The notes beneath the pieces are model-generated. The model saw nothing but the letters and a program-made list of their open reading frames with translations. It had not been told where the DNA came from and ran no database searches. Made by a program: the position numbers and the translations under genes. A stretch of 64,000 nt of DNA from Eledone cirrhosa (Eukaryota), in contig OZ024742.1 in assembly GCA_964016885.1 (NCBI GenBank), positions 223,696,001-223,760,000 on the forward strand, in the 5' to 3' direction. Each line of letters opens with the position of its first letter. Positions within the stretch are counted from its first letter, which is position 1. Positions 23,710-25,650 of this stretch are shown here, piece by piece.

Positions 23710-23766
23710 TCTGTATGCGGTATACCGGTTGAGCACTCATTAATATGCTAATAAATGTGAGATGAT

Positions 23767-24113
23767 GGAGGCACATGGCTTAGTGGTTAGAGCATTGGCC
23801 TTGCAATCAAAAGGTTGTGAGTTCAATTCTCAGACCGGGTGATGTGTTGTTTCCTTGAGCAAGACACTTTATTTCACATTGCTCCAGTTTACTCAGCTGT
23901 AGAAATGAGATGATAGGGACTGGGGTCCCTATCATTCCACTGCAAAGTGGTCGTGGAGGTGCCACGGCAAAAAAGCACCCAGCACTCACTGTAAATGAGG
24001 TTGGTGTTAGGAAGGGCATCCAGCTGTAGAAATCAAGCCAGAATCAGTTCCCGTCCCACCATTGCAAGCAGAGAAAAAGCAGACGTAAAATGAAATGATG
24101 ATGATGATGATGA
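23767..24113 (+). mobile_element. SINE family 2 copy with an alternative 3' tail
   Basis: Near-identical to 52410-52736 and 28750-29055. Confidence 0.88.
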
Positions 24114-24118
24114 TACAT

Positions 24119-24542
24119 ATAGGAACGAGTAGAACCGCGACGGCTGAGCTGAAGCCGTTTCGACGGCTAATTCTGAGGCCAGAATTAGCCGTCGAAACGG
24201 CTTGAGCTCAGCCGTCGGGGTCCTACTCGTTCCTATTACCCACTCTACTACTCTAAGTATTGAGTACTTTGGTGCGTTATGGTCCATCTGGTTCCTTACC
24301 ACATTTCCTTCCTTATATACATATATATATATATATATATACATATAACGAAGGAAATGTGGTAAGGAACCAGGTAGACCATAATGCACCAAAGTACTCA
24401 ATACTTAGGGTAGTAGAGTGGGTAATAGGAACAAGTAAGACCCCGACGGCTGAGCTCAAGCCGTTTCGACGGCTAATTCTTGGTCCAGAATTAGCCGTCG
24501 AAACGGCTTGAGCTCAGCCGTCGGGGTCTTACTTGTTCCTAT
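24119..24542. repeat. Nested palindrome: ~200-bp inverted arms, each ending in a ~118-bp hairpin; probably Penelope pLTR-derived
   Basis: Direct base-by-base complementarity, with (TA)n at the centre (~24315-24345). Confidence 0.9.
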
Positions 24543-24549
24543 ATATACA

Positions 24550-24612
<63 letters not shown>

Positions 24613-25045
24613 GGAAAAAATGAAACGAAATTTCATTTCCCACTCTTAGTACGGCTGTTACTTAAATATAAGTATGTACACGTACATACATATATGTATA
24701 CAGACGTACAGTAGTATGTATATATACATACATGCACACATATATATATGTATGTATGGATTCACCGAACATTTATTATAATGCTCGGTGTGTTTGTAAA
24801 CAAACATCCCGTATTAAGCCGTAGTGTCTAGCAACCATCGTAGCTCATTTATTCAACGCTGACAAAGGAACGCTGTACTAGTTTCAAGCTTATTAGCTAT
24901 CGTCGGCAATGTATACCTTCCTGCCAGATTGTTGAACGTATATACTTACCTTATGCATATTAACGGCTGAGTAGCCCAATTTGCATATCGCGTGGGTTAA
25001 TCGGCCGGGTGCACCGAAAACGATAAACAGAAAAAATGAAACGAA

Positions 25046-25650
25046 AGATTTGTAGGTTATTAGGTGATTGGCAGGTTTCTGGAAGTTTGTGTTGCAAATA
25101 GTCAATGTACCTGCATCACAAAATTCAAGAAGTCTCACTCCTTCTTCATTTCTTGAACCGTAACCGTGCCCACCATGTACCCCAGTGTAACCATCCTGGA
25201 GCTGTCCAACATGACCATTGAAGTCTCCTGCTAGCATAACGATGTCTCCATCCTCTGTCATTGCGGTTGTTTGTAAAAGTTGCTCATAAAAGCAGTCTTT
25301 CTCATCTTTGCCTAGGCCTGCTTGGGAAGCATAGGCAGAGATGATTGTCAGTAGTCTCCTGCCTACAACTAATCTAAGCTTAATTATTCGATTACTAACT
25401 CGAACTACCTCTATTTGATCCATTTCTCAGCCAGGAAAATGCCTACTCCCCTAACCCATCATCCTTACCTACCCAGAATAGCTTATAGCTAAGATGTTTG
25501 CCTACGACTAGTCTCGCAGAGGCACCTCTCCATCTCACCTCTTTCACGCAGCACACATCCACCTGTCTTCTCTCCAGCAGCTCCGCTATTTCAGCAGATC
25601 TACCTCTGAGAGTGCCAACATTAAGTGTTGCAACTCTGAGATGTGACGTC
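25046..25650 (-). mobile_element. RTE endonuclease fragment of a different subfamily, frameshifted
   Basis: LRVATLNVGTLRG, VKEVRW, ISAYA, AGDFNGHVG motifs split over ORFs 25443 and 24893. Confidence 0.88.

Follow-up and report, generated by a model that had tools for sequence, protein, structure and literature searches.

Penelope-like elements (PLEs) target (TA)n and leave inverted, 5′-truncated copies with a tail at one end; the Hydra clade among them, whose hosts include molluscs, likewise inserts into (TA)n and is marked by DKT, CxCX5C and CxxC/CxH motifs (Craig, Yushenova, Rodriguez & Arkhipova 2021, PMC8557442, in the part of that account on which we draw). The Poseidon element PAc of Anolis uses two nearby internal start sites for reverse transcription, has an optional tail that is the stretch between these sites, and has both strands of its target cut and extended (Frangieh et al. 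2024, PMC11167929). In the portion of their description considered here, the minimal hammerhead ribozymes of PLEs carry U3-A8 where C3-G8 would otherwise stand; their helix I measures 4-5 bp, their helix II is longer and leaves a 5′ base unpaired, and their helix III loops are small and palindromic (Cervera & de la Pena 2014, PMC4209133). We analysed a stretch of 64,000 nucleotides (nt) from Eledone cirrhosa (assembly GCA_964016885.1, contig OZ024742.1, positions 223,696,001 to 223,760,000 of the forward strand; hereafter the window), in which a preliminary description, made from the letters alone, had noted a nested palindrome at 24119-24542 containing half of a hammerhead ribozyme. With a probability of roughly 0.82, this locus consists of two separate 5′-short stub insertions of a Hydra-clade PLE, lying tail to tail in one (TA)n, each likely formed when the enzyme of the element copied one short 3′ stretch of its RNA at both cut strands of the target.

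The unit that is present twice consists of a hairpin (H) flanked on one side by a tail segment (X). Judged by its sequence, it is a stub that derives from an autonomous PLE found in this genome, and it does not represent a new type of element. The palindrome in the window is an ordinary, if tidy, footprint of an already known class of retrotransposon.

The geometry that had been described, with arms of about 200 bp inverted about (TA)n, two hairpins of about 118 bp and sub-hairpins within these, was verified in its coordinates and repeats. The outer inverted repeat has arms of 217 nt each (24114-24330 and 24331-24547) that are 91% complementary, with no spacer between them. Hairpin A has 57-nt arms (24119-24175 and 24180-24236) that are 95% complementary around a 4-nt loop, and hairpin B has 56-nt arms (24425-24480 and 24487-24542) that are 100% complementary around a 6-nt loop; the sub-hairpin AGCCGT-TTCG-ACGGCT is found in each arm. 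Compared as direct repeats, the two 118-nt hairpins are 92% identical. Folded as RNA, hairpins A and B reach -106.2 and -113.8 kcal/mol (z -18.4 and -23.6), and 0/200 shuffles were as good. The two H+X units are arranged so that their X ends face each other over about 23 bp of TA-like sequence.

To read these units, it is necessary to refer to two termini of the parent PLE: T1, which reads ...GTTCCTAT and then (TA)n, and T2, which reads ...X (CGTTAT) and then (TA)n. In every stub, the order that is seen directly is an inverted outer arm ending at T1, a loop, and a second arm that continues through the 82-nt tail X to T2. The second arm and X together match the pseudo-long terminal repeat (pseudo-LTR) of the PLE over the helix II 3′ strand, GAAA, helix III, GUC, the helix I 3′ strand and the tail. 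The features of the locus are as follows.

24119-24175, + strand: outer arm of copy A, an inverted duplicate of 24180-24236; the PLE terminus T1 (...GTTCCTAT) stands in reverse complement at its outer end, ATAGGAAC...
24176-24179, + strand: loop of copy A, at the junction of the arms; the junction sequence varies among genome copies
24180-24236, + strand: PLE-derived arm of copy A, with the helix II 3′ strand, GAAA (24194-24197), helix III (24198-24214), GUC (24214-24216) and the helix I 3′ strand
Between 24216 and 24217, + strand: predicted scissile bond of copy A, from the sequence and its alignment to the PLE pseudo-LTR
24237-24319, + strand: segment X of copy A, the PLE tail between T1 and T2, which ends ...CCTTATATAC at (TA)n and is 96% identical to X of locus L003
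24320-24342, no strand assigned: short (TA)n-like tract common to both tails, likely the target microsatellite
24343-24424, - strand: segment X (tail) of copy B, a 97.6% match to X
24425-24486, - strand: PLE-derived arm of copy B, beside X, with the loop; arm variant and loop (AATTCTTGGTCCAGAATT) are the same as in locus L090
24487-24542, - strand: outer arm of copy B, an inverted duplicate ending at T1; it adjoins a long (TA)n at 24543-24609

The hammerhead-like motifs that had been pointed out at 24194-24216 are at those positions: in copy A, GAAAC (24194-24198) is followed by GGCT-tgagctc-AGCC (24199-24213), GTC (24214-24216) and then GGGGTCC, and GAAA, helix III, the UH cleavage triplet and the helix I 3′ strand are also found in copy B, at 24500-24522. 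It is likewise the case that the CUGANGA half is missing and an inverted copy of the 3′ half stands instead, since there is no CUGANGA on either strand of 24119-24236 or 24425-24542, and the inverted arm (CCGTTTC) is in its place. By sequence comparison, the X-side half of each hairpin corresponds to the 3′ half of a hammerhead-type motif in the PLE pseudo-LTR, so the suggested PLE origin of the half motif appears to have been right. The PLE-derived arm of copy A is 95% identical, over 61 nt, to a pseudo-LTR in the PLE array L078 (4757-4817), and in PLE units X comes after the motif (L078 4818-4900).

The two copies had also been said to differ slightly, which they do. Copy A carries the arm variant CGAGTAG./CCTACTCG and copy B carries CAAGTAAG/CTTACTTG, and the variant of each recurs in other stubs and in PLE pseudo-LTRs. 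Because these arm or subfamily variants differ, copies A and B likely derive from separate insertion events. Copy B is likely the younger; its arms have no mismatches and those of copy A have three. Both copies have lost the CUGANGA-type half and are locked in a hairpin of -106 to -114 kcal/mol, and they are therefore predicted to be inert, i.e. neither ribozymes nor mobile.

The stub is dispersed in the window's own 3.0-Gb genome, from which all loci with L-numbers were fetched. A genome search found at least 81 matches to the 118-nt hairpin, with 92-100% identity (40 scored of 1,800 first-look candidates). X, a segment of 82-84 nt, lies on one side only in 29/29 other loci fetched and in 20/20 palindromic loci taken in genome order, and thus in 49/49 sampled loci altogether. 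A TA/AT run, which is short in some loci, adjoins the unit on both sides in 29/29 of the other loci fetched. There are also fragments that consist of the X end only, beside (TA)n (L002, L009), which suggests that copying begins at that end.

The pairing of the two termini is strongly biased. (The genome-wide figures given here and below are exact-pattern counts, together with samples of the first 100 hits.) Exact anchors pick out 18,640 loci of the form (TA)n-T1 arm...arm-X, which combine T1 with T2, as compared with 224 T1...T1 loci (16-17 in a reversed-pattern control) and 207 T2...T2 loci. If the ends were chosen independently, the mixed class would be predicted to number about 2 x sqrt(208 x 207), or about 415; the observed number is 45 times larger, and the two ends are therefore not equivalent. 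An independent choice of T1 or T2 for each end, as in plain twin priming, is ruled out by the 18,640 loci set against 224 and 207.

The junctions between the arms are highly variable. The apex is different in almost all of the 20 genome-order palindromes, with poly-T or poly-A fillers, unequal arms and longer or shorter apices, and the same diversity is found in the first 100 of the 18,640 T1...T2 loci. A further 1,121 stubs have much shorter arms. The arm variants of the stubs (CCTACTCG, CTTACTGG and CTTACTTG) are those of PLE-type pseudo-LTRs, and in most of the stubs displayed the inner and outer arms are complementary; two variants are mixed between the arms in 3/20 genome-order stubs (L080, L084, L099). 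These diverse junctions, together with the arm variants that stubs and pseudo-LTRs have in common, argue for stubs having been newly formed, repeatedly, from PLE RNA.

Some individual junctions are unusual. In L081 and L097, the apex is filled by a run of 18-20 nt of T or A between the arms, which may reflect non-templated additions or junction slippage. In L110 (G000:C1:5195500-5196300), the X-side arm has zero length and the inverted X is joined straight to the apex of the T1 arm, a structure that would be the product expected if a complementary DNA (cDNA) started at T2 had stopped on reaching T1.

We also considered a version of the hairpin that bears CUGANGA. Only 50 of 29,879 half-motif hits (0.17%) have CUGANGA 4-60 nt upstream, and these are mostly point mutants or junctions, so this candidate was rejected; the only recurring form among the 50, CUGAGGAG.TCGGCTAT, led on to the PLE itself. 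In a few copies the outer arm is replaced by other sequence that reads ...GGAATTACCCC-CUGAGGA-GCUCGGCUAUUC...; there are 14 exact hits, 12 from the family and two (L057, L060) unrelated to it. Upstream of one CUGAGGA-type copy, there is an open reading frame (ORF) with a GIY-YIG-like stretch. A genome search with this endonuclease part returned 61,792 first-look candidates, and 150/150 scored at E <= 9e-84. The open frames are 784-819 amino acids (aa) long, and tandem copies lie 3,531 bp apart, in units of about 3.5 kb. The preliminary description had asked for copies attached to reverse transcriptase (RT) and GIY-YIG ORFs, and the stretch with the motif does sit in the pseudo-LTR of elements that have ORFs of RT/GIY-YIG type.

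Two loci illustrate the structure of the parent. In L078, three units were resolved, in each of which the motif and X overlap the start of the ORF; two of the frames run to their full 784 aa, and the third is truncated where the locus ends. The fetched 10 kb (G000:C1:437199000-437208999) belong to a head-to-tail array, in which at least five PLE units repeat every 3,531 bp. The uninterrupted 784-aa frames in this array suggest that the PLE family was recently active. In L079, a full copy with an 819-aa frame ends ...GTTCCTAT+(TA)n, beside an inverted, 5′-truncated copy that ends X+(TA)n. Thus partial-tandem pseudo-LTRs, an inverted 5′-truncated partner, a tail at one end and a microsatellite target, which are marks of PLE insertion, are all found in this family.

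Both termini are used by PLE-type copies. The first 20 unpaired half-motif hits in genome order comprise 11 PLE-type copies, eight palindromes with one altered arm and one simple truncated copy, and six of the 11 PLE-type copies end at T1 and five at T2. T1 is the 3′ end at (TA)n in the PLE-type copies L107, L113, L117 and L119, and also at L079 8730. The 25-30 nt that follow each terminus are alike (L078 4818-4862 and 4898-4942), reading CTCTACTACC..GAGTACTTT after T1 and CTCCTACTCC..GAGCACTTT after T2, and small hairpins are possible there. As candidate start-site signals these hairpins found no support, in that folds of 55-nt stretches 3′ of T1 and T2 were no better than shuffles (z -0.1 to -1.5; for the two L078 stretches, -0.1 and -1.3).

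Read by eye, the ORF contains DKT (HSDKTGN), YRDD, FDIESYY, a CxCX5C linker (CNCPDRSIC), VIY...YIG, CNLC (CNLCSEE) and CKH (ACKH). Of the marks of the Hydra clade, it has DKT for DKG, the CxCX5C linker, and CxxC and CxH around the conserved E and N. It reads RWR where the clade is expected to have RWK; the clade is also expected to lack a CCHH motif in the endonuclease core, and here C and H residues are present both inside the VIY..YIG stretch and beyond it. The ORF has 1,156 homologues at E <= 1e-5 in a scored set of 8,000 candidates, the best being about 44% identical, and the best homologues carry precomputed PF26215 and PF28514 labels. The nearest ESM-Atlas clusters carry HTH_animal, DUF8422, GIY-YIG and RVT_1. 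The motifs place the parent element as a probable Hydra-clade PLE.

The parent motif reads ACCCC-[U/C]UGAN[A/G]A-G..helix II..C-GAAA-CGGCU-UGAGCUC-AGCCG-UC-GGGGU, on which basis the parent appears to carry a hammerhead-like motif of the PLE type (type I). A search pattern in which U4, G5, A6 and A9 were fixed gave 5,888 hits, and in the first 100 of these, the box is UUGANAA (U3..A8) in 75, CUGANAA (C3..A8) in 23, UUGAAGA (U3..G8) in two and of the C3..G8 form in none, with all four bases occurring at position N7. A canonical CUGAGGA or CUGAAGA box is present in 12 family copies. The expectation that the parent would have CUGANGA was therefore borne out in these 12 copies, which read ACCCC-CUGAGGA/CUGAAGA-stem II-GAAAC; it did not hold for the family at large, where the box is mostly non-canonical. 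In ten PLE-type copies with an intact box that were collected with the box unconstrained (L102-L104, L106, L107, L113, L116-L119), U4, G5, A6 and A9 are found in 10/10, and G10.1 is found in 9/10, with A in L104. When the drawn structure was applied to 33 aligned copies, 11 rows of which had been chosen by a pattern requiring CUGANGAG, 88.5% of 1,121 cells paired, versus 25-50% with slid partners.

An older, distant relative of the motif is present in L024 (2942-3070). Its helix II reads CAGCUAGAU/AUCUAGCUG where the young family has CGGCUA/UAGCCG, a difference of one G-C to A-U compensatory change; its box is UUGAUAA, and it has GUU instead of GUC.

The 1,121 short stubs are informative about the points at which the cDNAs stopped. 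In a hand count of the first 100, 25 read CCCC-(0-6 nt)-GGGG, with both arms ending at the predicted scissile bond between C17 and G1.1, and 17 more have one arm ending at that bond; no other junction is seen more than two or three times. There are also 244 simple truncated copies, with G or C right after (AT)4, and among the first 100 of these, eight begin exactly with GGGGTC, about eight more begin with GGGGTC after a short non-TA filler, and the next commonest starts occur four times. A pile-up at the C17-G1.1 bond is what run-off on hammerhead-cleaved RNA would give, and it hints at cleavage in vivo. The same pattern could also arise from a transcription start, or from stalling of the polymerase at the foot of helix III. 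The window copies stop in another, broader zone, at the top of helix II.

The idea that a C3..A8 subfamily gave rise to the long arms, and U3-A8 copies to the arms that end at the cleavage site, was dropped. In an unbiased list, U3-A8-type arms (CCAGTAAG) are plentiful among the long arms, and the sample behind the idea had been biased by a search pattern that left out AGCTGTC copies.

The simplest reading of the stubs, we infer, is that one RNA was copied from both start sites, one per strand, and that the cDNA ends were then joined. On the pattern described by Frangieh et al. (2024), the GIY-YIG endonuclease would nick both strands of (TA)n, and reverse transcription would start internally at two sites on the RNA, T1 and T2, one for each DNA strand; X would then be the tail between the two start sites. 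Both cDNAs would run toward the 5′ end of the RNA and stop early, which for the window copies means close to the top of helix II. Their ends would then be joined, probably by a template jump, and the outcome would be a palindrome with a tail on one side only.

Several observations weigh against the reading of the locus as Hydra-clade stubs copied in this way. With regard to the motif, the C3..A8 mismatch in 23/100 boxes is expected to cripple a hammerhead, and covariation is thin, with four pairs changed on both sides among sequences that are close kin. The covariance-model scan that had been proposed was unsuccessful, as no Rfam hammerhead model matches the parent box: there is no such match in the window or in the canonical-box copy L037 (both at E <= 10), and none in two full PLE stretches (at the gathering threshold) or in L078 4640-4900 (E <= 10). 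The helix II of 57 nt and the variants in the core may explain the missing match. With regard to the protein, Pfam-A gave no match to the 784-aa ORF even at E <= 10 and nothing useful for three of its homologues, and the RT and GIY-YIG calls rest on the motifs read by eye, the precomputed labels of homologues and the Atlas neighbours. Contigs from public runs at the locus are 60-84-nt pieces of repeat families, and none spans both units; at the loose ends of these contigs, other copies are seen to continue past 24236 with (TA)n, and to have ...TTTCATTTA ahead of 24483. The strict rule of one T1 and one T2 is not explained by the in vitro data of Frangieh et al., in which there was no strand difference in the start site. 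Finally, among the 30 best hits there are 17 whose 118-nt hairpins are identical down to the loop.

These 17 hits, which have the loop CTGAGTCCAG and are located at different (TA)n loci, could also be understood if H+X were a self-propagating, non-autonomous family of half-ribozyme hairpins, similar to short interspersed nuclear elements (SINEs), that was made once or a few times by fold-back and was then copied as a unit by a PLE enzyme recognising the tail. In line with this account, copy B and L090 have their arm variant and loop in common, and X, whose counterpart in Poseidon is where the RT start sites lie (PMC11167929), has been retained by all stubs. However, the highly diverse junctions, both in the 20 genome-order palindromes and in the first 100 T1...T2 loci, are difficult to reconcile with the copying of a finished unit, as are the 1,121 further stubs with much shorter arms. 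In addition, the arm variants of the stubs are those of the PLE pseudo-LTRs, with an outer arm that is mostly complementary, as repeated new formation predicts. We therefore regard this account of the family as unlikely, and some secondary copying of the stub unit, or a strong hot spot, as possible.

A second alternative resembles the fold-back idea of the preliminary description. A cDNA primed at T2 would stop, fold back and copy itself, and the hairpin end would be opened by an endonuclease nick at the TA-like T1 (between CCTAT and TA); a palindromic extension would be left behind, much as P nucleotides result when a hairpin is opened off centre. This would account for the strict one-tail rule, and many stubs do have mirrored arms around a loop of 0-6 nt, as counted in 25 of the first 100 short stubs; the loops in the window are 4 and 6 nt long. 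Simple fold-back priming at stem II, as originally proposed, found no support in that form, in that the inverted arm always ends at a second defined PLE terminus (GTTCCTAT), that unequal arms are frequent in other copies, and that the one-tail form is about 45-fold in excess over independent ends. As for the snap-back from T2, two cDNAs are favoured over it because the arms are often unequal (L085, L092, L100, and several T1...T2 rows in which a long T1 arm meets a T2 arm starting with GGGGTC), because junction fillers occur in the short stubs (A, T, TT, AA, ATT, TACTA), and because the inverted copies in L079 meet at non-mirrored points, the interior of the ORF in one and the start of the pseudo-LTR in the other. 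Moreover, T1 serves as an ordinary 3′ end in PLE-type copies without a palindrome, and extension of both strands has been shown in vitro for a PLE (PMC11167929). Snap-back formation of the stubs is thus improbable.

It is very improbable that the palindrome is an assembly artefact, made from mis-joined reads of a high-copy repeat. The tandem and inverted structures of PLEs are said to cause assembly problems (PMC8557442, in the part used here), and the locus is not spanned by any public contig. Nevertheless, the architecture of the single stub is found at 18,640 loci with distinct flanks, and a collapse would not produce the differences seen at several positions between the two units in the window, among them matched changes in both arms of copy B. 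An element that targets its own tails is expected to give rise to tail-to-tail pairs, of which L002 and L009 are partial examples, because (TA)n is self-complementary and every copy adds new (TA)n.

A hairpin-ended DNA transposon, i.e. a miniature inverted-repeat transposable element (MITE) or foldback element, or else a gene for a hairpin RNA or microRNA, might be suggested by the long perfect inverted repeats with TA flanks and by sub-threshold Rfam precursor matches across the palindrome (the best being MIR7723, with 94.5 bits against a gathering score of 200), but can hardly be entertained, given that the unit is asymmetric, with X one-sided in 49/49 sampled loci (on which the MITE test rests, target-site duplications being unreadable inside (TA)n), that it is homologous to a retroelement pseudo-LTR, that truncation from the hairpin side leaves copies with the X end intact (including L002 and L009), and that the microRNA matches all fall well short of their gathering scores and follow any long hairpin.

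Other repeats are found around the stubs. Just upstream of the palindrome, at 23760-23900 of the window, there is a SINE-like repeat derived from transfer RNA (tRNA), which is also present in L016 (~1630-1720) and L045 (~1290-1390); the Rfam tRNA model scores 28.5 bits on it at 23776-23833, just below the gathering score of 29, and near-identical copies adjoin other stubs. The long (TA)n is immediately followed by a direct repeat of 24 nt (ATAAAC.GAAAAAATGAAACGAAA, 96% identity), whose two copies, at 24607-24630 and 25023-25046, are 416 nt apart and which may mark another small repeat family. A different repeat, ...CTGATGAGGGACTCATTTTATAACATGTTATCCATGTGCAACC..., which has a CUGAUGA box, adjoins (TA)n beside several stubs (the right flank of L027; G000:C4:91626266; G000:C1:75273213) and may be the end of another PLE family.

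The window itself is of little weight, as inert debris of a retrotransposon family. The PLE family, on the other hand, is present throughout the TA microsatellites of the genome, with at least 18,640 lopsided stubs and very many longer copies, and is young, huge and sharply defined at its ends, which makes it usable as a data set. The genome sequence alone therefore yields statistics that are hard to obtain in vitro for PLEs, namely on the RNA start sites paired in each insertion, on the stop points of cDNAs and on the real use of the pseudo-LTR hammerhead. Perfect 57-bp hairpins would also, if transcribed, be natural substrates for small-RNA pathways. Somewhat short of even odds, in our estimate, is the more specific proposal that the stubs are a fossil record of the 5′ ends of template RNAs, such that the sharp pile-up at the C17-G1.1 bond would mean that the hammerhead, including its U3-A8 form, cuts the RNA in vivo before or during reverse transcription, and the almost invariable pairing of one T1 end with one T2 end would mean that the halves of a dimeric enzyme copy one RNA from two starts, the cDNAs being joined by a template jump. 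If true, this would provide a concrete and testable model for two features of PLEs that have long been puzzling, the inverted pseudo-LTR and the tail on one side.

In twin priming by human L1 elements, two cDNAs that are made from both strands of one target leave an inverted 5′ part, and the two parts copy different stretches of the RNA. The stubs are unlike this, in that both of their arms copy the same stretch from two fixed starts, and the result is a palindrome. Animal non-LTR retrozymes, in the part of the description drawn on here (Li, Clavereau & Pollet 2026 preprint, 10.64898/2026.07.22.740005), are similar to the stubs as short, non-coding derivatives of PLE pseudo-LTRs in high copy number; they are, however, tandem repeats with a whole hammerhead, whereas the stubs are dispersed, inverted palindromes with half of the motif.

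As far as the account of the Hydra clade used here extends (PMC8557442), the parent element is like members of that clade in having an ORF with a GIY-YIG-like C-terminal part, the DKT, CxCX5C and CxxC/CxH marks, (TA)n targets, partial-tandem pseudo-LTRs, inverted partners, a tail at one end and a hammerhead motif in the pseudo-LTR. In the same account, Hydra-clade elements are generally under 3 kb, PLE tails measure 30-40 bp and the canonical hammerheads of the clade are readily detected, whereas the parent unit here is 3.5 kb long, its tail is 82 nt, and its motif mostly has a UUGANAA or CUGANAA box and a helix II of about 57 nt. The parent motif resembles the minimal PLE hammerheads, within the portion of their description already referred to (PMC4209133), in being of type I and located in a pseudo-LTR, and in its U3-A8, its helix I of 4-5 bp, the 5′ bulge of helix II and the palindromic helix III loop UGAGCUCA. 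It departs from that portrait in that helix III is a real stem of 5-6 bp, helix II has a large apical extension, and about a quarter of the sampled boxes are C3..A8.

The likeness to Poseidon (PMC11167929) concerns the termini: both systems have two 3′ termini at a fixed distance with an optional tail between them, an AT-rich target of which both strands are used, as would give rise to inverted copies, and a hammerhead cut site, here a predicted one, a short way upstream of the start sites. Poseidon belongs to a different PLE clade, and its start sites showed no difference between the strands in vitro (PMC11167929), in contrast to the pairing of T1 with T2 in 18,640 loci here. Furthermore, no RNA reads were found to end at the hammerhead site of Poseidon (PMC11167929), whereas in the present family it is at the corresponding site that DNA junctions pile up.

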